DNA from: Schmidtea polychroa
Lineage: Eukaryota
Assembly (NCBI GenBank): GCA_044892525.1
Contig: CM097887.1
Location: 128,194,397 to 128,258,396, forward strand
Direction of reading: 5' to 3'
Length of the DNA: 64,000 nt
Shown here: piece by piece, positions 2,407 through 63,999 of the stretch
Layout of the letters: every line of letters begins with the position of its first letter
How positions within the stretch are numbered: position 1 is the first letter of the stretch
Notes under the pieces: model-generated
What the model saw: only the letters and a program-made list of their open reading frames with translations
What the model was told of the DNA's origin: nothing
The model's database searches: none
Made by a program: the position numbers and the translations under genes

Positions 2407-3375
2407 TGTTGGGTTTTCAGTAAATTTAAGTCGGTAACCTCTGACTCCTTGTGTCCATTAAATCAAAACAATAAACGACCCAACGTATATTGAAATCAAA
2501 AATATATTTTCTCTCAATAATACACAATCAATAATAAATAGTCCAACAGTTCTAGTTTGACCGATTCTCCGCTCGGTGTTGATGCTTTGATAAAGATAAT
2601 ATTCACCTTTTTTTTCCTTAGGTTCTCTTGTCCAACGTTTTCTTTTTTCTCTTTGATTTGATCCTTTTTCACCCTTTCTATTCTTATTTTATCTCTTCTT
2701 TTTCCCTAATCTCCTAATTTCGTTTTTACCTTTTCCTAAGCTCGATCTCTTCTAACTCTAGCTGAGGCAAAATGCCTATTTGCTCTGATTTTCCCATTCC
2801 TTATATACTCTCCGAAATCAGGATGACAAATGATTATTGCCGAGTCAATCTCTCACTTGACATTCGCTTCCACATAATTGCTTTCTACACGCACTATCTT
2901 TTCCTTGCTCAAAATTGATCATTGTGTCAAGCTAATGGGCCCAAATCTTCCGTCTGTTTACTTTTCTTCTTGTTTACCCAGTTCGGGTTTCCTTCATATC
3001 TCGGGTTCTCCATTGGCTCGGGTTTACCATTAGCTCGGGTTTTCTATTAGCCAATTAATTAATTAATTAATATTTTCTGTTTTTACACATTTGAATGCTT
3101 TTCGACCCTTTCTAACCATTTTCTGATAAATCCCTAATCATCATCTTGTTGACCATTAGCTACTCTATTCCCCATTCGATTTCGATGATTCTTCAATTTA
3201 TTGATTTTTCTCGGATTTCCGGATTCTTGCCTTTCGTAACTGCTTTTTGCCATTTCCTAATACTGTTTCCATCGTACTTTCCTTTACTATCAATTCTGTG
3301 CATGATCACGCTTTTATTTGTCTTTTTTCTTCACTTTTTATTTAAATTACCAACCTAAATTTACGGACCTCAACA
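2407..3375 (-). mobile_element. Solo LTR (Ty3/gypsy-type family 1)
   Basis: TGTTGGG...CCTCAACA ends, ATAC duplicated on both flanks (2403-2406, 3376-3379), colinear similarity to 30168-31557. Confidence 0.9.
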
Positions 3376-23003: not shown

Positions 23004-25392
23004 CACTAGGACGGCCGGAAATATTTTATACCTTGGAAGGCCAAACCGGTCAATTTGACCGGTGCACATATGCTCCTTATTTTCATGCTGAGATTTCTAT
23101 GATGCAACTCATTTAGCAATACTTTCTTTGTGCTACTAACACGCTTTCAAAATTTAACTATTTTTATTCTAACAGTAGTTAATTTATTAAACTACTTACA
23201 ACAATGAAATAAAAATATTTGTTTAGCTGACACAAAGCTACACTATTTTAAACATTGTCTTCGCGTTTATTCAGACTGGTATGTATGTATACTTCATTTC
23301 TTGTTTATAAATATTCTCTTGCTTTTATTCAAAGATAGTGCTTATTAAAAGTGTAATTAAGCAAGCATTAAGAGTTCTAAGTTTTGAAATTTGGTAAATT
23401 AAAAGAATCAAACGAAAAACTTAACGAAATGTCATAAGACAATATCTAATAATTGTTATAGAAAATCTTTGAACTTCTTGGGATAACAAACATTATATAA
23501 CCGTGTTTTCATTAGAATTCAATAATAAATTTGACGTTTCTTATTTTACTGACGGAGTTTTTATCATTATTTGATGATGAGCCCGAAAGAAATGATTCTG
23601 ACGAAGAGTTACATGAATGGAACTCTGATGATAATGGAAGTTCGTTAGAAAGTGACAATGAGTCATTCAATAGCTCAATTTCTTCATTAGAAAATCAGCT
23701 TTTATCTAGCAGGGATGGCACTCTTTGGAATCGAGTAGAAAACAATCACGCTATTAGTGTTGGCAGATTCCCTGCGCACAATATTTTTAGTGGAACACCT
23801 GGTTTGAAAGCTTTTGCAAAGCGCTTGATAGTCTCTGAGGGAATGCTGAAGTTAATTCAAAAATACACAATTATGAAAGGAAAAGAAGCTTCGTCAGACT
23901 GGTGTATCAGTCTACAAGAATTAGATGCTTTTCTTGGATTGCTGTATCTCCGTGGTGTGTTAGGCTTTCGCCGACATTCTATCAATTCAATCTGGTCATC
24001 TCAATTTGGATCTCCTTACTTCAGAGAAGTCATGTCTCGGAACCGTTTCCGTGAGATACTGCGCTTTCTTCGTTTTGATGAACAATGTTCTCGACGTCAA
24101 AGAGTAGAACAAGATAAATATGCCCATTTTCGTGAAATATTTGACTTGTTTGTTTCAAACTGTCTTCAAGTTTATACTCCTAATCCCTTCCTTACTGTCG
24201 ATGAGCAACTTTTGCCGCTAAAAAATAGGTGTTGCTTCATCCAATTTATGCCAAATAAGCCTGATAAATTCGGTATCAAATACTGGATTCTCAGTGATGT
24301 CAAAACCAAATTTGTCATCAATCAAATGCCATATTTAGGGGCTCACGATAGAAACGAACGCTGTGGATTACGGCTGGGTGATTTTGTAGTCAGGAAACTA
24401 ATGGAGCCATTTTTCAATAAAGGATACAATGTCTGCACTGACAATTTCTTTACAAGTCTCTCACTAGCTGAACATCTCCTTGTAAATCGAACAACATTGG
24501 TTGGTACTGTAAGATTAAATTCACGCTTTTTATCATCAGCTCACTTGGAGAAAAAGCCTCTTTTTGAATCGACTCATTTATCGTGTCAAAACACTGTCAC
24601 TGTTTCCTATCAAGGCAAATCGGACAAGAAAGTCATTGTCATGTCAACATTCTATTCTACTGCTAGTGTGAGATCTGACGAAAAGAGAAAGCCTGAAATG
24701 ATACACTTTTATAACAAAAATAAGACAGCTGTAGATACCATGGATAGCATGTTGCGTTTATACAGCAGTAAGGCCGCAACAGCAAGATGGCCAGTCGCTA
24801 CTTTCTATGATTTGCTTGATAAAGCAGCTCTCAACGCTCATGTTATTTTCAAAGATGCTACGGGATCAACTATAAAAAGAAGGGATTTTATTTTTGAATT
24901 AGCTACATCTCTCTGTGAGGAGTTCAAAAGCCGTCGAACAGCAAGTCCCATCTCTGGTGAACTCTGTTCTGAACAACCAAAATTAAACAAGCGAAAAACT
25001 TGTTCTGCTCCTCATTGTGATAACAAATCCGGAGCTATATGCCATGTATGTAGTAAAGTTTACTGTGGAAAACATTCCCAAATGACTGTTAAATGCTTCG
25101 GTTGTGTGTAAATTATATTTGGTTTTATATTTTCTAGTATGTAAGATGATTATGTGTGACTTTCTTGTGTGTTTCAAGATACCGGTCAAATTGATCGGTT
25201 CGGCCTTCCATGGGGATGGCCTCATTATCTCAGTCGTGACAAATGCTATAATTGAAGCTTTGATATGCACAACAAGTTCACTAAAAATGAATAATTGTCA
25301 CAAAATATGAGACGTTAATTCCTTTTCGTTTTCTCACAAAATAAAAATGAAATTGCTTAACGGTCAAAATGACCGCTCTGGCCGTCCTAGTG
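23004..25392 (+). mobile_element. Full-length piggyBac transposon
   Basis: 13-bp TIR CACTAGGACGGCC/GGCCGTCCTAGTG, TTAA on both sides (23000-23003, 25393-25396), subterminal CGGTCAA(T/A)TGA(C/T)CG palindromes. Confidence 0.97.
23531..25111 (+). CDS. piggyBac transposase
   Basis: LTVDEQL, CTDNFFTS, VDTMDSM (DDD triad) and C-terminal Cys-rich domain. True start uncertain (TTG; possible splice acceptor at 23514-23515). Confidence 0.95.
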   Translation: MTFLILLTEFLSLFDDEPERNDSDEELHEWNSDDNGSSLESDNESFNSSISSLENQLLSSRDGTLWNRVENNHAISVGRFPAHNIFSGTPGLKAFAKRLIVSEGMLKLIQKYTIMKGKEASSDWCISLQELDAFLGLLYLRGVLGFRRHSINSIWSSQFGSPYFREVMSRNRFREILRFLRFDEQCSRRQRVEQDKYAHFREIFDLFVSNCLQVYTPNPFLTVDEQLLPLKNRCCFIQFMPNKPDKFGIKYWILSDVKTKFVINQMPYLGAHDRNERCGLRLGDFVVRKLMEPFFNKGYNVCTDNFFTSLSLAEHLLVNRTTLVGTVRLNSRFLSSAHLEKKPLFESTHLSCQNTVTVSYQGKSDKKVIVMSTFYSTASVRSDEKRKPEMIHFYNKNKTAVDTMDSMLRLYSSKAATARWPVATFYDLLDKAALNAHVIFKDATGSTIKRRDFIFELATSLCEEFKSRRTASPISGELCSEQPKLNKRKTCSAPHCDNKSGAICHVCSKVYCGKHSQMTVKCFGCV

Positions 25393-27197: not shown

Positions 27198-27904
27198 TTA
27201 CAATTCCGTAACTAAACTTTGTAATATTCGCTCAGTTTTGCTTGATTCGTCTAAACTCAAAGATTCAGTTTCCGCATCATTTTGTCGTTTCCGACATATC
27301 GCAATGTCATTTTCCGTTTCAACGAAGTTCTCTTCACTTTTTGTTTTATTTACACTCGGTAATACCCTGTTATCGGTGCTCATTTCCTCGATATCCCTTT
27401 TAGCTTCATTTTCCGATCCCATTTCCTCATTTTCCATTGTTTCTAATCTCTGCAATTCATTAATTTCTTGATCAATTTCTCCTGGGTCATCTACAACTTC
27501 AGTTTTAATCTCTACATTATCATTATACGTTTCCTCATACGGAGGCCAAACGGTATTATTACTGCATCTCTTTCCATTTCATCACTTTGCTTTGTTGCGT
27601 ATACATTATTAATACAATTTGGGTTACATCAGTAATTCAATAAATATTCGTCATCATCTAATTCTCGTGCTTTGAACGTCAACACGATAATTCCTTCATT
27701 GCGTAATATCTCATCTGCTTTTTGTCGTATTTTCTTTGCTTTTACACTCCAATGTTCCTGATAATATTCAATCCTTTGATCCGCAATATTCAACGCTATT
27801 ATCAACGACTTCGCACTATTGTCTAACACCCCATAATCATGTCCTAGTTTTCGGATTACCTTTTTGAGCTTCGCCTGATAGCTTGTCGGTTTATTAGTAT
27901 ACAA
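27198..27904 (-). pseudogene. Helical and acidic linker segments between the UBL and Bcl-2-like domains
   Basis: ORFs 27629..27904 and 27198..27455 on the same strand, separated by stops and frameshifts. Confidence 0.45.
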
Positions 27905-28361
27905 TCAAACAATTCAAACAATCTTCTTTCATTTCTCGATCCATTTCAATGCTCATAATGAAATCGATACTCGCATTAATTTTATCTTTATTCCCTGCAT
28001 ATAGAGTGTCTTGTAAATCTGCTAGAATTTTTTCCCAATTCTGTCTACCTGAATTCAAAGTATTAACTGCATTAACGACATTTACTTTATTTTTCCAGCC
28101 TGGTATCAGACCGCAATCTACCAAGTACTCCTCGTCTTCCAGACATCGATTCTCAAATTTTAATTGCACTTGCCATCCACTGTATTGACGCAGTATTCGC
28201 TCCTTTAGCTCTCTGATTTGTCCGTAGGCATTTGCACGGAATTGGCACATCACATTATCAAGTCCCGTCGTTTCCACTACGATATCAGCTAAATTTCTTG
28301 TTGGCCGTAAAGCCTTGCCAAACTTCTGCATTTGCTTAAGTATCTCATCGTAGCTTTGCAC
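27894..28361 (-). CDS. ORF containing an integral ubiquitin-like domain (nt 28071-28286)
   Basis: IVVETTG...IRELKERI...QVQLKFENRCLEDEEYLVDCGL...VNVV parallels ubiquitin IFVKTLTG...IENVKAKI...[21 protein letters not shown]...LHLV; no terminal GG. Confidence 0.75.
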   Translation of the reverse strand: MQSYDEILKQMQKFGKALRPTRNLADIVVETTGLDNVMCQFRANAYGQIRELKERILRQYSGWQVQLKFENRCLEDEEYLVDCGLIPGWKNKVNVVNAVNTLNSGRQNWEKILADLQDTLYAGNKDKINASIDFIMSIEMDREMKEDCLNCLIVY

Positions 28362-28464
28362 ATAAATTTATTGCTCTCTTTAGTTCACTTTGGGTTAGTG
28401 ACATCAAACTGAGTTCTGCGATCCATCGTTTCAAATGGGAGTTGTTAGTTTCCATTCTCGCAAG

Positions 28465-29851
28465 TCATCTTTCAACTCGGGCTAACAATGCCGTCGGATT
28501 CTCATCTGATGCGATTTTTCTCACTTTCATGGCGGGTTTTTCCTCACCTTCTGACACGGTTCCGATTATCATATGAGATTCAGTTTCCTCGTCTAATTCG
28601 AATTTAGCCAATAATTTGTTCAACTTCTGTCGCATTTCTCGAAATTCCTTTTCCATTTTGTCTTGAAATTCCTCTCTCTGCGCATATGTCATATTACTGG
28701 TATTTGGCATATCTTCTTGGAACCTAATCGATTTCTTTAATATAGGTCTGCTAAATCTTTCTGAGTTACTTGGGCACGATCGAGCCATATGACCGTATCC
28801 CTTGCACGAATGGCATTGTATTTGTCCATTGGTATTCACTTTGTCCCTTTGTGGTGAAGGTGACGTTGACGATGATCTTGATCTGGTGAAACAGTTTCTG
28901 CTAATATGCCTTTTCTTTCCGCATCGATAGCATTCAACATCACTGCTGATCCTTTTGTTATCTTTGAAACTCTTGTTAGGGCTGAGATTTTTCCCATATT
29001 TGAACCAACACTGATTTCAGTAGTGTCCGGACTTTTTGCAATATTCGCACTGAGGGCTATTTACCTGTCCATTTGATTGTACGTTCATGGCTGATCAACT
29101 GGCTTGAAATCTATTATTTGGTCTCAAAATTGGACTACTGATTTGGTTTATTTTCTTTTCATCCCATGGTGCTCTCACAGGAGTAATTGACCGCTCACGT
29201 CTCTCCACATTAACTCCAAAAGCATCTGATCTTTTCGCACTTTTTAAATTCAGCTCTATCTTCATGGCTTTCTTCACAAGCTCATCGAAATTAGAAAAAT
29301 CCACATAACATAGGGCATTTTTGATTTCGGAGTGGACTCCGGTTATAAACTGATCTTCTAACAGCTCTTTAACCTGCTTGGCCATATCTGCTTGATCTGG
29401 TTTGACTTCAAAGGCTTTATCTGCTAAAGTGGTCAGATGATAAGCAAACTCACTGACCGATTCATCTGGACCTTGAACTCGATTATAGAATTTCTGTCGC
29501 ATAATTCTTTTGATATCTCCACAACCAGTTTCAGTGCCATTGCATCCTTCAATTTGATCCAATCATTGCCAACGTTCCGTTTATCGACTTGCTGCCAGGC
29601 TTCTCTTGCCGCACCCTTCAAATAGAGTGGGAATCTCTGAACCTTAATGGCTTGTGTCCATCCGCATGCTGAGGATTATACATATAATAATCTCCCATGA
29701 AATCTGCGAATTCAACAGGGTCTCCTCCATATTGATTGACGGGTATTTTTTGGCAACTTGCGAAATCAATCATCTCTCTATTGATAGGCATAACAGCATT
29801 ATCATTTGCCATTTGGACTTGTTTTTGACTTCTGAGGTTGTATCGATTCAC
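28465..29851 (-). pseudogene. gag: Retrotransposon Gag with three CCHC zinc knuckles, frameshifted
   Basis: GWTQAIKVQRFPLYLKGAAREAW, QGPDESVSEFAYHL, DQFITGV; knuckles CEYCKKSGHY*NQC, CYRCGKKRHISRNC, CHSCKGYGHMARSC. Confidence 0.9.
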
Positions 29852-30167: not shown

Positions 30168-31557
30168 TGTTGGGTTTTTGGTTAATTTAAGTCGGTTACC
30201 TCTGACTCCTCGTGTCCTTTAAATCAAAACAAACACTACCCAACGTATATTGAAATAACAAAATTCATAATCTTTTCTCACCACTTTACAATCAATAATC
30301 AAAGTTACGTTTGACAGATTCTCCGCTCGGCGTTGATGCTTTGTAAATAGATAATATTCACCTTTTATTTCTTTAGATTCTCTTGACCCACGTTTTCCTC
30401 TTTTTCTGTTTGATTTGATTCTTTTTCACCTTTTCGTATTCCTATTTTCTATATCTTCTTTTCCCTAATCTCCTTAATCCGTTTTTACCTATTCCTAACT
30501 CGGTTTCTTCTAACCCTATGCTCTGATTTTCCCTTTCCTTATATACTCCTCGAAATCGGGATGACAAATGGTTATTGCCGAGTCAATCTTTCACTTGACA
30601 TTTGCTTCCACGTATCGGCTTCGGCTGTCACCCATAATGGCCCAACGAACCAAGATAATAAATGGCCCTTCCGGCCTTTCTACACGCTCTTTTCCAATTA
30701 ATCATTGTGTCAAGCTAATGGGCCCAAATCTTCCTTCTGTTTACTCTTCTTCTTGTTTACCCAGCTCGGGTTTCCTTCATCTCTCTTCATAAAAATGAAA
30801 TGAATAATGAACTAAATAAATTTTTGGACAATAATACTCCAATATTCATTCAATAAGATCCCATTAATAATTACCTAACCCTTCCTAACTCGGTTTCTTC
30901 TAACCCTAGCTGAGGCAAAATGCCGATTTGCTCTGATTTTCCCCTTCCTTATATACTCTTCGAAATCGGGATGACAAATGGTTATTGCCGAGCCAATCTT
31001 TCACTTGACATTTGCTTCCACGTATCTACTTCGGCTGTCACCCATAATGGTCCAACGAACCAAGATAATTAATGGCCCTTCCGGCCTTTCTACACGCACT
31101 ATCTTTTCCTTGCTCTTTTCCAATTAATCATTGTGTCAAGCTAATGGGCCCAAATCTTCCTTCTGTTTACTTTTCTTCTTGTTTACCCAGTTCGGGTTTC
31201 CTTCATCTCTCGGGTTCTCCATTGGCTCGGGTTTACCATTAGCTCTGGTTTTCTATTAGCCAATTAATTAATTAATTAACGTTTTGATTGCTTTGAATGC
31301 TTTTGACCCTTCCTAACCATTTTCTGATAAATCCCTAACCATCATCTTGTTGACCATTAGATAATCTATACCTGTCCCGTTTTCCCAATTCGATTTCGAT
31401 GATTTTACAATTTATTGATTTTTCTCGGATTTCCGGATTCTTGCCTTTCGCAATTGCTTTTGGCATTTTCCAATACTGCTTCCATCACACTTTTCTTTGC
31501 TATCAATTCTGTGTATGATCACGCTTTTATTTATCTTTTTCTTCACTTACTTTTTAT
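30168..31557 (-). repeat. 5' LTR (runs into N gap) with internal ~300-bp duplication
   Basis: Homologous to solo LTR 2407-3375; 30480-30790 is repeated at 30880-31210. Confidence 0.9.
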
Positions 31558-34099: not shown

Positions 34100-34824
34100 C
34101 ATACATGCCAGAAAATTTTATTTTTGGCGTCAAATAAACTCTATATTAGAATCGAAAATCAACACCATTTGTAGAATGTATTCGGTTTTGTTTGAAATAA
34201 AGTTATTTTGTTGGGATTCAAGTTTTATTTGCTTAATTATTGAACACAAGGATCCAGATCGAGAGCTAACAAATTATTGAAATCCCAACAACCGTCACAT
34301 ATGCCGAAATTGTCAAATTTTAGATGAGAATTGAAATTCAAACATGTTTGCATATAATGTAACAAAAAACAAAATTAAAAGTTTACCTAGCAAATAATCA
34401 AAAACTCATAATCAATAAAAAACTGAATATGCCTGAATTATTGACCTTTTTAAGAGTAAATTATAACAACTTAGATATATCTTAATTGTGATTGATTAAA
34501 GAACAGAATGGGCTGAAGGTGCTGCACTAAAATTTAACTCGGTGATAATTGTGATTATTCCCATTGATAGCCATCGGCTGGCTTAGAATCATTTTCAGTG
34601 CAATGGGGAAATGTTTGGTGGTCACGTGGATTTAGTTTTGAAACACGAGTCTAACTGTAAACTTATCCTTGGGACCTTAACCCCCGAACTTCGAAATCAA
34701 TAAAAAACAAAAAGAGTGTGATTGCAATTGATTTGTGAACGATTATTACTAATTGCAAACAGATTTCAAAATCTCAAATCAATTGAAATCATACAATAAA
34801 AAAATTAAAATAAATAGTGTAAAT

Positions 34825-35301
34825 TTTTTTTTACGGTTGTCTAACATTAAAATAATATAAACATTACAAGCTTTGTGATACCCAGTGCAAATCCCAATAG
34901 TAGACTAGTTTCGAGCTTTTAGCTCTCATCAGTACCATGCAGGAGAAGCGAAGATTTCTCTTCGCGCCAGGTGAGTATACAATATTGCTGATTCAACTCT
35001 ATTGCTTACTTTCCCCGGTACACTGGAAATCACATCACTTGCAAATTAGCTAAATCACAGAAACAAATATCTGCAAACTTGTAAACATGGCGTATGGGAA
35101 ATCATATTCGCCTCTGGAGACATCGTCATACACAGAAACTGTTTACAAGTGTATCCGTAAGCCTTTAGCATTTCTAACTTGTAATGGATTAAAATATTTT
35201 TTTACGGATGTCTAACAATTCCAGTGTGTGTACCAGGGAAACTAGGGAAGTTTACTATTGGGATTTGCACTGGGTATCACAAAGCTTGTAATGTTTATAT
35301 T
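34825..35301 (-). mobile_element. Penelope-like/retrozyme remnant with an inverted terminal copy
   Basis: Hammerhead core, perfect 49-bp inverted repeat (34854-34902 / 35253-35301), short direct repeat TTTTTTACGG(T/A)TGTCTAACA at ~34827 and ~35200. Confidence 0.7.
34897..34938 (-). ncRNA. Minimal type I hammerhead ribozyme
   Basis: AUGGUA-CUGAUGA-GAGCU(AAA)AGCUC-GAAA-C(UA)G-UC-UACUAU: 6-bp stem I, 5-bp stem II, minimal palindromic stem III, GUC cleavage triplet. Confidence 0.9.
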
Positions 35302-35762
35302 AAAAATAAATAGTAAAAATTATAATTTATATTAATTATAATAATAGATATTAATAAAAAATTGATAAAAAAATTATAATCAATATTATTTAATTTCTTA
35401 TTATTACTAATTATTATAATAATATTGTTATCATTATTTTACTTATAGAATTATCTACAGTTCAAGCTTACGGGCGCATATCCTAGCATCAGATGGCTAT
35501 TCCTATGATAATGCAGAAACTAGCTAAGGAAATATCCCAAACAAACAAAACTCATATTTGTTGTGATATCGAAGGCCAGAATCGAGTGAATATAATCAAA
35601 AACGAAAATTTGCCTGAGGAAAATTGCAAACGGGTTAAATTTATATGTAATTGAAGAAAGGTTTGAACAGCAATCATACAATTATAGTTTCTGATTACGT
35701 TTGTTTTAACAAAAAAAGCGCTGAATTGTTTATTGTTTGTATAATAACCACAATTCAAATAA

Positions 35763-36498
35763 TTATAATTTATTTTTTAAATTGTTAAAATAAATTAAAA
35801 ATTTCAAATGTTTGAATGCTTCATCGTACCTCAAGTTTAAAATGCTTTCTGATACATTTTTTAAAATATCATTAAATTTTTGATCAATTTCATTTGATAG
35901 AATTTCTTTATTTTTATCGTTTTTGACTTCAACAATCCGTTCGTTATAGTCAATCATTTCATCGAAAAACGCAGGATCAATTGTAATATCTCCTTCATCC
36001 AATTTATAACCTTTTAAAGTAAGTATATAAATAGCTCTTAATAATGGATATTTCAAAGTATTATATGCTTCATTTACGACGGCAGATGATTCTTCAGATA
36101 AATTTTTTTCAAACTAAAACGACAATGTAAAGGGTTAATATTATTAAATCGCAAAAAATTACGTCACTAAATTTAGAATATTTATCAGGATGTAGATCTC
36201 GTTGAAATTGCTTCCATCGTTTATTAATAAAATTTAAATCGATGTCAAATTCGTTTTCAGGAATTCCAAACATGTCAAAATATGTACATTGATGACTCGG
36301 TTTTTGGATTTTGCCACATTTACAAAAAAACATACATTTACATAAACTTTCATTACAATTCCAACATTTTCGTGTTAAATTTTGACAATCATGAATGTAA
36401 GCTTGCAGATGTAACCTATTCAGTAGAGCATTTTTATAAGACGAATTGCTTAGAAAATCATACAAGTGTTTATTTAACGATGAAAAGACTTTTCGCAT
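35763..36498 (-). CDS. HSCB: Fe-S cluster co-chaperone HscB/HSC20, 2 exons (36498-36163, 36113-35763), ~228 aa
   Basis: CWNC...FFCKCGKIQ, J-domain LHPDKY; a 49-nt GT-AG intron (36114-36162) restores the frame into SAVVNEAYNTLKYPLLRAIY. Confidence 0.93.
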
Positions 36499-51105: not shown

Positions 51106-51261
51106 NNNNNNNNNNNNNNNNNNNNNNNNNNNNNNNNNNNNNNNNNNNNNNNNNNNNNNNNNNNNNNNNNNNNNNNNNNNNNNNNNNNNNNNNNNNNNNN
51201 NNNNNNNNNNNNNNNNNNNNNNNNNNNNNNNNNNNNNNNNNNNNNNNNNNNNNNNNNNNNN
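51106..51261. other. Assembly gap
   Basis: N run. Confidence 1.
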
Positions 51262-51291
51262 ATACCCAGTGCAAATCCCAATAGTAGACTA
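51262..51291 (-). repeat. Third fragment of the hammerhead-bearing repeat
   Basis: Identical to 34878-34907; next to a gap. Confidence 0.85.
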
Positions 51292-58578: not shown

Positions 58579-58767
58579 TTTTGATCCGGATCATTTTTTT
58601 TTTATTTCAACTTCTTTCGTTTATCAAATCTCTTCCAATATACAAGCTGGCCAGACTCATACATCAGAATCAATCCGATAATAGCAGCACGCCTTATTAT
58701 TCGCTTCTCGCTCACGAAGTCGATTTCAACGGCGTTTTAGTATCCAATAAAAAATTTTTTTCTAAAA

Positions 58768-61700
58768 ATGAATTGTAATATTTGCAATAAAGTTTTTAAA
58801 AATAAAACTGGATTAATTTCTCACTTAAAATCGAAAGCTCATTTATTAAAAGAAAATAATCTTAATGATACAAATTCAAAACTTTGTCTTAAATGTAAAG
58901 GAAGATTTCTACATTCTGGATATAATAAACATTTTGAAAATTGTATCGGGAAAAATAGAGAAATATTTACATGTCCTCATTGTAACTTTTCAACAAAACT
59001 AAATTTCTATTATTTAGAACATATAAAAGAATGTAAAAATAAAAAACAAAATTCTGACGATGAGGAATGTCATTCAGAAGGAGAGCCTGATCATGTTGAA
59101 AGAGAAAAATATAACTGGGATAATTTTAATCATATAGATGAATTTCAATTAAAAATTAATGGGCCTGCAACTCCTGGAGAATATATAAATAAAAATAAAA
59201 AAAATATTAAAAATTCTTTCACTGAAGCTTTAAAAAATTATAAACCGACAAGGTATAATGTTATAAAATATAAAATTATAATCAAAGCAAAATACTGGCG
59301 AGGAGCAGAAGAAAAGACAACACCCTTAGATGTTGAAATTGGAATACCTTTTAAATATTTATTTTCAATTAAAGGATTTGATAAAACCATCAAAGAAATA
59401 ATTAAAGCAGCAGAAGCAAAACAAGAGGAAGTAGAAAATGAATTAGGAGATTCAAACTTAGTATTCAACTCTTTCCAAACTTTAGTGATTGATTATTGGA
59501 GAGGATTACCACCCAATCCTAAATCTTATATTCCTACACCCTTTAAATCTAAAAATGTTATAAATGTACAGAATAATGATAACAAATGTTTCATCTGGTC
59601 AATACTTGCACATTTACATCCTCAAGCAACAAATCCCCAAAGAGTTTCAAAATACAAACAATATGAAAATGAATTAATATTTCCCAAAGGATTCAAACAC
59701 CCAATGAAACTAGAAGACATTCCAGAATTTGAAAAATTAAATAATCTTAAACTTAATATTTATGAACATGTTATAGGGAAAGAAATTATTCCAATTTATA
59801 TTTCAGATAGTGGAACCAAGGATAACGGAGCACAGGACAACGAGATATATCTTTTAATCTTGGAACAAGAAAATAATCAACATTATGTTTTAATAAAAAA
59901 CTTTCAAGCTTTTACATCTCCAGAGAATCCAACTAGTGGAGGAGGAACATGTAAAAGATGTCTTCATTATTCAACAACTAAAAACTCTATGATTAAACAT
60001 ACAAGATTTTGTGAAAAAGATGATCCAGCTTTAATTAAAATGCCTAATAATCCCAAGATGTATTTTAAAAACTTTTCAAATTTACTACAAACAGTTGGAG
60101 TTCTTTATGGTGACTTTGAATCTATAAACCATAAACAAGATTTGGTTTATCAATATTTAAAAATAATAGAAAAAAATAAACTCATGGATTTATGGAACTC
60201 CTCAGGAGAGAAGATGAAACCAGAGAGGATGAAAGCCTTTCTAAGAAAAAGAAATAAACCTAATAGTGTTAAAAAAACTAAACAATTACCATCTGCTTAT
60301 AAATTATTATTTAAAAGTAATTATCCTGAACTCATAGAATCTAGAGAATATTCAATTCTAGGAGGTACCCCTGAAGAAGTCTTGAATCACTTTACTAAAA
60401 GTATAAATGATTTAGAACATGAAATATATAAAATATTAAAAACAAAGTATCCTCAAAATATTTCTAATCAACAACAACAAGAATATGAAAATACTTCCAA
60501 CTGTTGGATGTGTAAACAGAATATTCTTCCTGATGAAAAAGTTATAGATCATGATCATTTAAAAAAGGAAAATAATTATCGAGGAGCAGCTCATAAAAAT
60601 TGCAATCTTAATTGCCATACTCCTAAATTTATACCTGTTATATTTCATAATCTTTTTGGATATGACATACATCTATTTATTAAACACCTCGCAGCAAATG
60701 CTAAAAACTCTTTCAAAGTTATCGGCTTAACAAAGGAAAAATATAAATCAATTGAATATGGAAAATTAAAATTTATAGACTCGTTAAACTTTCTCCAAAT
60801 GTCTTTAGATGCAGTAGCAAAAACAATGAAACCAGAAGATTTTAAAATCACTCGAGAATTCTTGGAAAAAAATAATATTCCTCTAGAAGAATATCCTACA
60901 TGTTTAGCAAAAGGAATATATCCTTATGACTATGTTGACTCGTTTGAAAGATATAATGAAACAAGTCTTCCTAACAAAGAAGATTTCTTTTCAAACTTAC
61001 TACAATCAGGGATTACAGATCAAGAATATTCTCGAGCATTAAAAATGTGGGAATTATTCAAGTGTAAAACTTTAGGAAAATATACCAACATGTATTTATC
61101 CTTAGATGTTTATATTCTAGCAGATTGCTTTGAAGAATTTACAAACTCTTTTGTTCTTAAACCTTATAATTATATAACTGCACCCTCTTTAGCTTGGGAT
61201 ACTATGTTATATACCATTTGGACTTCAAATATAGAAGATGCTGATAAAATTATAGATCTTTTAACTAACCTCGATATGTTTAACCAAATTAAAACAAACA
61301 TTAGAGGAGGAGTCTCTTCAGTAATGGGGAATAGAGAAATAAAAGCTAGAAATGCAATAACTACTAGCCGAAGACTATCTAAACACCCTGATGATCCATA
61401 TATGAAAATTAACAATGAGGAATTAAAAGAATTATTAGAAACAATGAAAAATCCTATATTTATACTTTATATAGATGCAACAGCTTTATATTCAGGAATT
61501 ATGACTCAATTTTTACCAATGGGTGATTTCACTGAAATAGAGAACCCAACAGATGACCTTATGAAAGAAATACTTTTAACACCTAAAGATTCTCCAATAG
61601 GTTACTTTATAGAATGTGATCTCGATTATCCAGATGATATAAAATCAAAAACAAGATATTATCCTTTAGCCCCTATAAGAAGAAAGATTAATGTTAACGA

Positions 61701-63045
61701 ACTTTCTAATTGGCAAAGGAAACAAGATAAACCTCCAACAATGAAACTTCTTTGTGATCAAACAGATCGAAGGTTTTATCTTTGTCATTATCGCTTACTA
61801 CAGTTTTACCTCACACATGGAATGATATTAAAAAAAGTTCACAGTATAAAAAGATTTCGACAAGCACCATTTATGAAACCCTTCATCGAAGAGAATATTA
61901 GGTGTAGAAATATCGCAAAAAGAGCAGGTAATGCATTCCTTGATTATATATATAAACTTTTAAACAATGCAGTCTTTGGAAAGACAATGGAGAATATAGA
62001 TAAATATACTAATATTAAACTTTTAACTAATTCTCCTAAAGATATTAAACGTTATAATCGTATGCTAGGAAAGCCCACATTTAAAAATGCACAAAAGTTT
62101 TCTGAAAGTCTTATTGCAGTAGAACTAAAGAATTTTGAGAAAACATATAATAAACCAATATTTATTGGTTTCTCAATTTTAGAACTTTCAAAATTACAAA
62201 TGTATGAAACATACTACAATGTCTTACAACCTATATATGGTTCTAATATAGCAATGCATGCAATGGATACAGATTCAATGTTTTTAACAATAAGAACTGA
62301 AGACCTTGAAAGAGATATGGAAAATCCTATACTTTCAAATTTAATAAATTCATCTGGAGAATTATTTTCGTTTAAAGATGAAAAACCTTTTACTCCTATA
62401 GATAGTGCAGTATTTATTCGTGCTAAACAATATTCATACGAAACATTTAAAAAACCAATATTTGAAGATCAAGAAATTATATTTAAATCCCCCAAAAAAG
62501 AGAAAATTATTTCATTTAAATATCCTATATTCCTGGAGGATGAGAAACCTGTAAAGGATAACAGATGTAAAGGAATACAGAGAGTGGTTGCAAAGAATCT
62601 TTCTCATCAAGATTATATAGATACATTAAACCCAAATCATAAAGATAAAATTGATGAAATACATCAACTTAAAAGTGAAAACCATGATATTCACTTGATA
62701 GAATCTCAAAAAGTATCATTATCAAATTATGATGATAAGAGATTCATACTAAGTGATTTAAAGACAACTCTACCTATTGGAAATAATTTAATCCCTATAA
62801 TAAAAAATCTAGAAAAGTTGAATAAGTTATATGATACAAAGATTACTGATCTTGATATTTATAATGTTGAAATTATTTATCCCGAGAGAGAAATCGAGAA
62901 ACCTTTATATTCTCAAGTTTTTAATCCTATATGTTTAGAACTTAAATATTTTAATACTGATCCTGAATATATAAAAGGTCTAAGTGATAAAGAATTTAAA
63001 GATCATAAATTAATGATTCATAGGTTGGCTTTCAACCATAACTGA
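58768..63045 (+). CDS. polB: Protein-primed family B DNA polymerase (1425 aa) with N-terminal Zn fingers, OTU-like Cys/His region and endonuclease-VII-like insert
   Basis: Exo YGDFES, FHNLFGYD, FIDSLNFL, KGIYPYDY, LDVYILADCF; pol YIDATALYS, KLLNNAVFGK, MDTDSMF; CWMC..DHDH..RGAAHKNCNL. Confidence 0.97.
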   Translation: MNCNICNKVFKNKTGLISHLKSKAHLLKENNLNDTNSKLCLKCKGRFLHSGYNKHFENCIGKNREIFTCPHCNFSTKLNFYYLEHIKECKNKKQNSDDEECHSEGEPDHVEREKYNWDNFNHIDEFQLKINGPATPGEYINKNKKNIKNSFTEALKNYKPTRYNVIKYKIIIKAKYWRGAEEKTTPLDVEIGIPFKYLFSIKGFDKTIKEIIKAAEAKQEEVENELGDSNLVFNSFQTLVIDYWRGLPPNPKSYIPTPFKSKNVINVQNNDNKCFIWSILAHLHPQATNPQRVSKYKQYENELIFPKGFKHPMKLEDIPEFEKLNNLKLNIYEHVIGKEIIPIYISDSGTKDNGAQDNEIYLLILEQENNQHYVLIKNFQAFTSPENPTSGGGTCKRCLHYSTTKNSMIKHTRFCEKDDPALIKMPNNPKMYFKNFSNLLQTVGVLYGDFESINHKQDLVYQYLKIIEKNKLMDLWNSSGEKMKPERMKAFLRKRNKPNSVKKTKQLPSAYKLLFKSNYPELIESREYSILGGTPEEVLNHFTKSINDLEHEIYKILKTKYPQNISNQQQQEYENTSNCWMCKQNILPDEKVIDHDHLKKENNYRGAAHKNCNLNCHTPKFIPVIFHNLFGYDIHLFIKHLAANAKNSFKVIGLTKEKYKSIEYGKLKFIDSLNFLQMSLDAVAKTMKPEDFKITREFLEKNNIPLEEYPTCLAKGIYPYDYVDSFERYNETSLPNKEDFFSNLLQSGITDQEYSRALKMWELFKCKTLGKYTNMYLSLDVYILADCFEEFTNSFVLKPYNYITAPSLAWDTMLYTIWTSNIEDADKIIDLLTNLDMFNQIKTNIRGGVSSVMGNREIKARNAITTSRRLSKHPDDPYMKINNEELKELLETMKNPIFILYIDATALYSGIMTQFLPMGDFTEIENPTDDLMKEILLTPKDSPIGYFIECDLDYPDDIKSKTRYYPLAPIRRKINVNELSNWQRKQDKPPTMKLLCDQTDRRFYLCHYRLLQFYLTHGMILKKVHSIKRFRQAPFMKPFIEENIRCRNIAKRAGNAFLDYIYKLLNNAVFGKTMENIDKYTNIKLLTNSPKDIKRYNRMLGKPTFKNAQKFSESLIAVELKNFEKTYNKPIFIGFSILELSKLQMYETYYNVLQPIYGSNIAMHAMDTDSMFLTIRTEDLERDMENPILSNLINSSGELFSFKDEKPFTPIDSAVFIRAKQYSYETFKKPIFEDQEIIFKSPKKEKIISFKYPIFLEDEKPVKDNRCKGIQRVVAKNLSHQDYIDTLNPNHKDKIDEIHQLKSENHDIHLIESQKVSLSNYDDKRFILSDLKTTLPIGNNLIPIIKNLEKLNKLYDTKITDLDIYNVEIIYPEREIEKPLYSQVFNPICLELKYFNTDPEYIKGLSDKEFKDHKLMIHRLAFNHN

Positions 63046-63139: not shown

Positions 63140-63736
63140 TTATAAGTAAGAATTCTTTAACCATTTTTCTCGAGATGTTTTTTTATTACTTATAACATTA
63201 GCCACCATGCCCTCCCTTTTTAATCTTATAACCTCATTCTTTATATCTTGTATTATTTGATTTGATTTCATTATTTCTTCGTCTGTCAGGATTCCATCTT
63301 CCAAAGCTTTTAATTGAAATAAAAATAATTTAGAGATTCCTAATTCTATTGATAAACAAACTTCTCTATATAAACTTTTCTTTTTAGAAGTATAAGATAA
63401 TGAAACTATTTCAGTTAAGAAACCATCAACCACAGAAATACTTCCAAGTATTACAGGTGCAAGAGTAACAACTGGTAAAGTTATGGGTAAAATAACTGTT
63501 AATATTGCAGATGCAAATCCTAAAGAATAACCTATAACTTTTAAAACTGTATTCCCTTTATTCCATCTATTTTTAATTTTTTTATAATGCTTTAATAAAT
63601 CTTGTAAATGTAAGGTTTCTGATTTAAATTCTTTTACTCTCATAATTTCAAGTTCTGTGGGAGCCGAGGCCTTGGAAGAATAATATCCTGATGATCTCAA
63701 TTCTGGGTAAATTTTTTCTTCTCTTACTTCTTCCAT
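63140..63736 (-). CDS. Polinton accessory protein with a hydrophobic hairpin
   Basis: 198-aa ORF convergent on polB; VIGYSLGFASAILTVILPITLPVVTLAPVILGSISVV; C-terminal ALEDGILTDEE. Confidence 0.8.
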   Translation of the reverse strand: MEEVREEKIYPELRSSGYYSSKASAPTELEIMRVKEFKSETLHLQDLLKHYKKIKNRWNKGNTVLKVIGYSLGFASAILTVILPITLPVVTLAPVILGSISVVDGFLTEIVSLSYTSKKKSLYREVCLSIELGISKLFLFQLKALEDGILTDEEIMKSNQIIQDIKNEVIRLKREGMVANVISNKKTSREKWLKNSYL

Positions 63737-63744
63737 TTTAATAA

Positions 63745-63999
63745 TTAAAAAAATAAGACTTTATTCTTCTGAGCACCATCTGGCACCAATACTCGGATAT
63801 CAAAAGAAACTCTTGTTGAGAGGATATCTTTATACAATTCTCTCAATGCTTTACGAACTTCATCAACATCAACCTTTTTTTCATAAAATATTAAATCTAT
63901 ATATTGTACAAGTGAACTAGAAAAATGAATATTCTTACTTTTAACTTTATGTAGTCCATGTGAATGAGTATTAACATACCAATCTCCGTGTGGTAAATC
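63745..63999 (-). CDS. 3' part of a further Polinton ORF, unknown product
   Basis: Frame open from the window edge (DLPHGDWYVNTHSHG...KNKVLFF*), stopping 8 nt before the next ATG. Confidence 0.6.
   Translation of the reverse strand, partial: DLPHGDWYVNTHSHGLHKVKSKNIHFSSSLVQYIDLIFYEKKVDVDEVRKALRELYKDILSTRVSFDIRVLVPDGAQKNKVLFF

Follow-up and report, generated by a model that had tools for sequence, protein, structure and literature searches.

Introduction

The question raised by this locus is whether the end of an RNA cut by its own hammerhead ribozyme became the boundary of an inverted repeat in DNA. Both features lie within the window, the 64,000-nt stretch of Schmidtea polychroa DNA that was analysed. 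The point of value is what hammerheads do in Penelope-like elements (PLEs; PMC8557442, PMC11167929); PMC8557442 describes a layout of direct and inverted pLTRs as typical of PLEs and calls the function of the hammerhead unclear. Pen2a from Adineta combines direct pLTRs with an inverted pLTR of lesser length and has, on one side only, a tail of 31 bp, the whole lying within a 9-bp target-site duplication (TSD); self-priming has been proposed for palindromic junctions (PMC3846280). At AT-rich DNA the Poseidon_Ac protein cuts both strands and extends them; two internal initiation sites bound a 30-40 bp tail, and cleavage is dispensable in vitro (PMC11167929). Non-LTR retrozymes have been defined and linked to PLEs (PMC7229834; bioRxiv 10.64898/2026.07.22.740005), a palindromic short helix III with dimer activity is described for hammerheads (PMC4209133), and twin and dual priming have been defined for L1 (PMC2837659).

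The hammerhead ribozyme

A type I hammerhead is read on the minus strand at 34897-34938, with a 6-bp helix I, a 4-bp helix II, and a 2-bp helix III with a palindromic loop; the predicted cut falls at 34903/34902. By sequence reading its parts are stem Ia (34938-34933), CUGAUGA (34932-34926), stem II (34925-34922 and 34916-34913, enclosing a 5-nt loop), GAAA (34912-34909), the palindrome ACUAGU (34909-34904), C17 (34903), and stem Ib (34902-34897). The CUGANGA core, the GAAA, the NUH triplet, and helices I, II, and III in type I order are in place, with a monomer helix III of only 2 bp; every sequence element of a type I hammerhead is present, and the predicted cut is the one in the original prediction, which put it after GUC at 34903/34902. 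A descriptor scan returned this hammerhead as its sole match in the window and 0 matches in 100 Markov resamples of the window. Rfam Hammerhead_HH9 aligned at E=0.034 with 20.6 bits, below its gathering score of 52, and the Rfam scan of the window gave no match at any gathering score; the other seven Rfam matches in the window (E 0.2-9.8) are regarded as chance.

Helix III of the monomer would enclose a 2-nt loop, too short for a monomer to close. The folding energies are -17.0 kcal/mol for the double hammerhead, -21.9 kcal/mol for the best dimer fold, and -17.6 kcal/mol for two monomer folds, values that do not show ribozyme activity. By the standard inference from the 2-nt monomer loop and the modelled double hammerhead (PMC4209133), cleavage would need a double hammerhead formed by two tandem units; the proposal that the palindromic stem III implies dimeric cleavage is supported to this extent, and such cleavage is plausible.

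Helix I lies in a long predicted hairpin (z -2.46), and fold and sequence together place a 7-bp hairpin with a GAAA tetraloop upstream of the ribozyme at 34948-34965 on the minus strand. Within the family of related copies described below, a common allele at 34936 turns the helix I G-U pair of this copy into A-U, an allele at 34921 lies in loop II, and an allele at 34947, as read from the variant table, would lengthen the stem of the 34948-34965 hairpin. Among the 40 variants listed of 82, one one-sided change keeps the helix I pair, there is no two-sided change, and no variant falls in the catalytic core.

Inverted arms at the locus

Numbering follows the minus strand and starts at the predicted cut, with +1 at 34902 and -1 at 34903. 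Repeat search and direct comparison place a direct arm (+1 to +49) at 34854-34902 on the minus strand and an inverted arm covering the same positions at 35253-35301 on the plus strand; 35302 also equals +50, and the inverted arm carries no tail. The perfect inverted recurrence of 49 nt that first drew attention to the locus is borne out, the direct arm being identical to the reverse complement of 35253-35301 at 49/49 nt, with a BLAST E of about 3e-21 within the window. In the repeat search the pair lengthens to 54 nt at 98% (34853-34906 and 35249-35302), with one mismatch at the position of C17. The statement that identity ends exactly at the cut holds for perfect identity; however, beyond the cut, after one substitution and a 5-nt gap, 8 nt more match the upstream sequence 34905-34912. 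Neither the arms nor the hammerhead look like chance. The inverted copy folds with z -0.79; its reading as a second hammerhead with a longer helix III was ruled out in the descriptor scan, as it has no CUGANGA.

Anatomy of the insertion

The arms are parts of an insertion of about 480 bp between two identical, AT-rich 12-bp TSDs at 34807-34818 and 35303-35314; in run X5 one extra A is read after 34806, making the TSD match 15 bp. Between them lie one 371-nt non-coding unit, a one-sided tail of about 30 nt, a 35-nt filler, and the inverted arm. In the sense of the ribozyme, the insertion reads as the inverted arm (+50 back to +1), the filler, and a direct copy from +57 through the hammerhead to +82 of the next unit. 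The repeat unit (34847-35217, minus strand) has 37% GC and no open frame above 53 codons; its length is given by a 26-nt direct repeat spaced 371 nt apart and by contigs returning from 35217 to 34851 and 34854. The direct copy starts at 35192-35217 (minus strand) with a repeat of +57 to +82 that is 24/26 identical to 34821-34846, and the tail (34821-34852, minus strand), recognised from clusters of loose ends in the family, spans +51 to +82 past the cut on one side only. An AT-rich 23-nt inverted repeat (87%) lies just left of the insertion, in single-copy flank, at 34716-34794.

The junction filler (35218-35252, plus strand) consists of an inverted slipped copy of 35007-35030 and possibly an 8-nt piece from just upstream of the cut. 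Its local score against the unit is 33.0, a value reached by 0/288 random 371-nt window segments (maximum 25.5), and the filler is templated by element sequence. At the position of 35016 it carries an allele that differs from the adjacent direct copy, hinting that a different unit may have been the template; the copies of +57 to +82 differ at 2/26 nt and the arms at 0/49, a contrast that speaks weakly for a linear multimer composed of unlike units and against repeated copying around a single circle. No contig listed spans the junction, and the filler sequence is that of the window assembly. This, together with three N gaps in the window, one of them beside another family copy, would be in keeping with an assembly artefact in a high-copy repeat; nevertheless the TSD is exact, the arms are only 49 nt, and in run X1 the contigs 34650-34864 and 35282-35450 (depths 215 and 237) join both flanks to the element without differences, and such an artefact is considered very improbable.

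An inverted 5'-truncated copy, a one-sided tail in the 30-40 bp range, and a TSD in an AT-rich target form the insertion pattern of a PLE; the link to PLEs made in the original prediction is supported by the TSD, the inverted 5'-truncated copy, and the one-sided tail of about 30 nt when these are set against PMC3846280 and PMC8557442. The short non-coding unit, 371 nt long with open frames of at most 53 codons and a single type I hammerhead, is that of a non-LTR retrozyme. Tandem copies are present in the family, whose contigs run from 35217 back to 34851/34854 and from 35196 back to 34843; the locus itself has one hammerhead. The linked PLE ORF for a reverse transcriptase (RT) or GIY-YIG domain that was to be looked for did not appear: a Pfam scan of 118 window frames (22 + 96) gave 0 RT or GIY-YIG matches, and the insert holds no trace of the RT or GIY-YIG ORF of an autonomous PLE. 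The main reading, held with a probability of about 0.8, is a single insertion of a non-coding tandem hammerhead retroelement (a non-LTR retrozyme), most likely moved by a Penelope-like RT/endonuclease encoded elsewhere. On its sequence, the element is classed as a Penelope-type insertion with the non-LTR retrozyme characters that were tested, and not as an autonomous PLE.

Copies of the family in public runs

Contigs of four public runs were aligned to 34650-35450, giving 14297 records in X1 and 5900 in X5; X9, a run labelled as a second organism, gave 91 family records. The summed contig depth at the ribozyme peak against that of the flank is 3.9 million vs 215 in X1 and 1.07 million vs 42.7 in X5; this excess, roughly four orders of magnitude, does not give a copy number and is read only as "very high copy". 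The source animal holds a tandem family of very high copy number. Two clusters of loose ends, 30 nt apart, are found at 34851 (X1, 51 records; X5, 32) and at 34821 (X1, 22; X5, 14); the 3' ends of the family are at +52 and +82, several with TAA-repeat flanks.

A partial family copy at 51262-51291 (minus strand), 30/30 identical, runs 5 nt past the cut and ends at -5 in the helix III palindrome; its region (51106-51291) emerges from an N gap. A 73% match at 59888-59937 inside a long ORF (E=0.09) was treated as chance. Family-specific DNA patterns gave 0 matches in metagenome contigs, 0 in viral contigs, and 1 in a bacterial genome (L132), with about one 20-mer match expected by chance in 596 billion bases.

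Over the 315 nt that precede the cut, the copy in the window differs from the common family letter at 11 or more positions, and despite this the arms are 100% identical; identical arms have a probability of 0.018 at 4% ageing per arm. These values would suit an inversion at the DNA level after insertion (by fold-back or template switch in repair), or arms later equalised by gene conversion. Such an origin is nonetheless improbable: the TSD encloses both arms, the outer end of the inverted arm lies at the main 3' end of the family, the layout recurs in 7 other junctions, and the identity of the arms is explained equally well if the copy was inserted recently from a divergent subfamily.

Same-core loci in other organisms

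A same-core pattern gave 137 matches at 131 metagenome or viral loci, 72/137 with both helices I and II, and the same ribozyme core is, judged by this pattern, widespread; the metagenome loci belong to other organisms and share only the ribozyme core. An inverted copy covering the post-cut sequence is present in 0/72 of these matches, a figure not counted as evidence because the contigs are short and inversions assemble poorly, and unrelated upstream palindromes are present in 3/72. For a Pfam scan of neighbouring frames, 34 loci with long flanks were chosen, 32 of them with a frame of at least 100 codons; RVT_1 was matched by 7/32, 3 above the curated cut-off. Judged by their motifs, these RVT_1 enzymes are presumably of Penelope type. 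Metagenome contigs of 3-4 kb (L018/L019, L024/L025, and L055/L056) carry the same core at both ends with an RT frame between, and are apparently complete PLEs of other organisms; short metagenome contigs (L035, L044, L069, L072, L097, and L106) carry a pair of same-core hammerheads within direct repeats, spaced by about 490-730 nt, a retrozyme-like arrangement of tandem units or circles.

Ends of inverted arms relative to the cut

Among the 15 joints listed of 93 in the family, 8 are internal deletions and 7 are read as head-to-head inversions, a joint being called an inversion where it leads into an inverted arm or changes strand; 3/7 inversion joints occur in both X1 and X5. The short arms of these 7 inversions end at +5, +9, +13, +22, +24, +27, and +34, such that 0/7 junctions in this listed set lie within 2 nt of the cut, and the cut is therefore not the usual boundary. 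The tabulation of breakpoints suggested with the original prediction is accordingly divided for these 7 junctions: the ends are scattered from +5 to +34, but all lie 3' of the cut. When the window copy is added to this listed set, the shorter arm stops at the cut or 3' of it in 8/8 junctions; in so small a sample, the absence of any double crossing in 7 has a probability of 0.13-0.009 at an assumed crossing rate of 0.5-0.7 per arm. Ends may gather near the cut, and the cut may be a ceiling for the short arm rather than its usual end. Scrambled element-derived filler is also read at the junction 34935 -> 35274. In other copies, three deletion joints (34905, 34908, and 34920 -> 34954-34956) remove the ribozyme core wholly or partly and land in the GAAA tetraloop hairpin.

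At the locus itself the junction can be read in two ways, either as continuing to -1..-10 with a substitution and a 5-nt gap (score 30.0) or as an upstream segment (32.5); a discontinuity falls at the cut under either reading. At this locus the coincidence with the cut is genuine, and it is not a general feature of the copies seen. That a self-cleaved RNA end was the template boundary is thus upheld in one respect, in that perfect identity ends at the cut, and weakened by the two similarly good junction readings and by the 0/7 other ends within 2 nt; a causal coincidence is possible and is given somewhat less than an even chance.

Two explanations carry most of the weight for the stop at +1 in this copy, the rest falling to DNA-level events or assembly error. 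In the first, held tentatively, the short arm is run-off cDNA from the 5' end of ribozyme-cut RNA, the RNA having been cut at its first hammerhead, left uncut at its second, and twin-primed at +82 of the second unit and +50 of the first. Perfect identity that ends at +1 argues for this (were ends spread uniformly over 34-50 places, one would fall no more than 1 nt from the cut with a chance of about 6-9%); so do a lesion at the cut under either junction reading, the 8/8 shorter arms that stop at or 3' of it among the joints listed, and two deletion joints that leave at -3 and -6. The start of the direct copy at +57, just past the arm end at +50, fits twin priming on cut RNA, being the inversion with small deletion described for that process (PMC2837659). 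However, only 1/7 other long arms has its start (35219) no more than 10 nt from +57, none of the 7 other junctions ends within 2 nt of the cut, no cluster of loose ends is seen at the cut among the 24 rows listed of 908, and the 35016 allele of the filler, unlike the adjacent direct copy, hints at another unit. According to PMC11167929, moreover, Poseidon_Ac uses mainly uncut RNA in vitro and no RNA reads start or end at the cut; the coincidence was also picked after the fact.

The second explanation, for which the odds are put only just short of even, requires no cut: on an uncut template the short cDNA stalled at helix I, was truncated at random, or ran to -10 and then jumped through 4-nt microhomology to about -108, with the match to the cut incidental. 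By definition the first position of helix I is +1, and the helix is part of the predicted hairpin noted above, such that a structural stall would fall at the same place; the alignment of the junction to -1..-10 scores nearly as well as the upstream segment, other arms end from +5 to +34, the copy at 51262-51291 overruns the cut by 5 nt, and the joint 34908 -> 34956 also leaves at the GAAA motif. Alone, however, an uncut template leaves unexplained why none of the 8 short arms clearly extends beyond the cut, and the reading to -10 requires two lesions exactly at the cut. A broader form of the first explanation, in which the cut sets an absolute limit to the short arm throughout the family, arms are primed near +50 on ribozyme-cut RNA, and the window copy is a full-length run-off, is doubtful.

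Proposed mechanism

For the insertion as a whole, the main reading of a retrozyme moved by Penelope-like machinery can be set out in steps. Both strands of an AT-rich target would be nicked 12-15 bp apart, and each nicked end would prime reverse transcription at one of two internal RNA start sites (+82 and about +50). Synthesis begun near +82 would traverse one unit, including an uncut hammerhead, and reach +57. Synthesis begun near +50 would halt after about 50 nt and generate the filler through short jumps between templates, and head-to-head joining of both cDNAs would complete the insertion. On this scheme there would be nothing unusual about the short arm, a 5'-truncated copy in inverted orientation. 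From the long arm it follows that the site was uncut, or had been re-ligated, in at least one template.

Surroundings of the insertion

The GC content of the window is mostly 22-42%, and remnants of hAT, piggyBac-like, and gag sequences are present; together with the intron-split gene described next, these features have the look of an invertebrate animal genome. A two-exon gene for an HscB/Hsc20 co-chaperone lies at 35766-36498 on the minus strand (HSCB_C E=1.3e-6; J-domain HPD motif by eye); the insertion follows its stop codon at a distance of about 450 nt, and gene and ribozyme share a strand; a read-through transcript would include the insertion. An intact 531-codon piggyBac-like transposase frame is found at 23516-25111 on the plus strand (DDE_Tnp_1_7 E=1.4e-68). 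A repeated element of about 1 kb, at 2407-3362 and 30168-31556, has an internal tandem duplication of about 410 nt, 76-91% alike; it adjoins gag-like remnants at 27894-29675, and the copies are probably LTR pieces. An intact 1434-codon frame at 58741-63045 (plus strand) with an N-terminal C2H2 finger faces a convergent 206-codon frame at 63140-63760 (minus strand); the longer frame, by eye, is presumably a protein-primed B-family DNA polymerase of the Polinton/adintovirus type.

Significance

Thousands of records per run and frequent inversions make a purely computational test of arm ends against the cut available in this family. No paper tabulating inverted-arm ends against a hammerhead cut was found in the literature covered, mostly at the level of abstracts; Fig. 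S2 of PMC11167929 may bear on the point. If the cut does limit the short arm, genomic junctions would record self-cleavage in vivo, and cut RNA would serve as a template in Penelope-type insertion, against the dominance of uncut RNA in vitro. A positive outcome of the computational test would also link retrozymes with the Penelope machinery through the anatomy of their insertions (tail, inverted arm, and TSD), in addition to sequence likeness.

Comparison with known systems

Metazoan non-LTR retrozymes are alike in having a non-coding tandem unit of a few hundred nt, a GC content under 45%, one type I hammerhead per unit, and high copy number (PMC7229834), and they have been proposed to be moved by PLEs, as inferred here (PMC7229834; bioRxiv 10.64898/2026.07.22.740005). 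The locus differs in consisting of one unit with one hammerhead, which makes it a dispersed monomer and not an "active" array under the two-unit rule of the preprint (bioRxiv 10.64898/2026.07.22.740005), and in its inverted arms and tail, neither of which is reported in the available text of PMC7229834 or bioRxiv 10.64898/2026.07.22.740005.

The endonuclease-positive PLEs Pen2a and Poseidon_Ac share with it an inverted 5'-truncated copy at the 5' end, a one-sided 30-40 bp tail, a TSD, an AT-rich target, a hammerhead near the 3' end, and two 3' ends 30 nt apart; unlike them, the element here has no ORF. The inverted pLTR of Pen2a is 181 bp (PMC3846280), whereas the arm here is 49 nt and lacks the ribozyme core; this copy has scrambled filler in place of a palindrome at its junction.

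The ribozyme resembles canonical metazoan type I hammerheads, which have a helix I of 6 bp, a helix II of 4 bp, and a helix III of 1-2 bp with a palindromic loop of 2-4 nt, and are predicted to act as dimers (PMC4209133); in the terms of that paper it is the canonical form with a short helix III, and not the "minimal" form without helix III. No bulged nucleotide is needed before helix II in the hammerhead here.

Twin and dual priming of L1 likewise leave TSDs around two inverted fragments, a small internal deletion, and filler DNA (PMC2837659), and the two are indistinguishable at this insertion; unlike L1, there is no poly(A) and both primings are at fixed internal sites of a tandem unit. The layout is already known for PLEs and non-LTR retrozymes, and the element is ordinary in kind.
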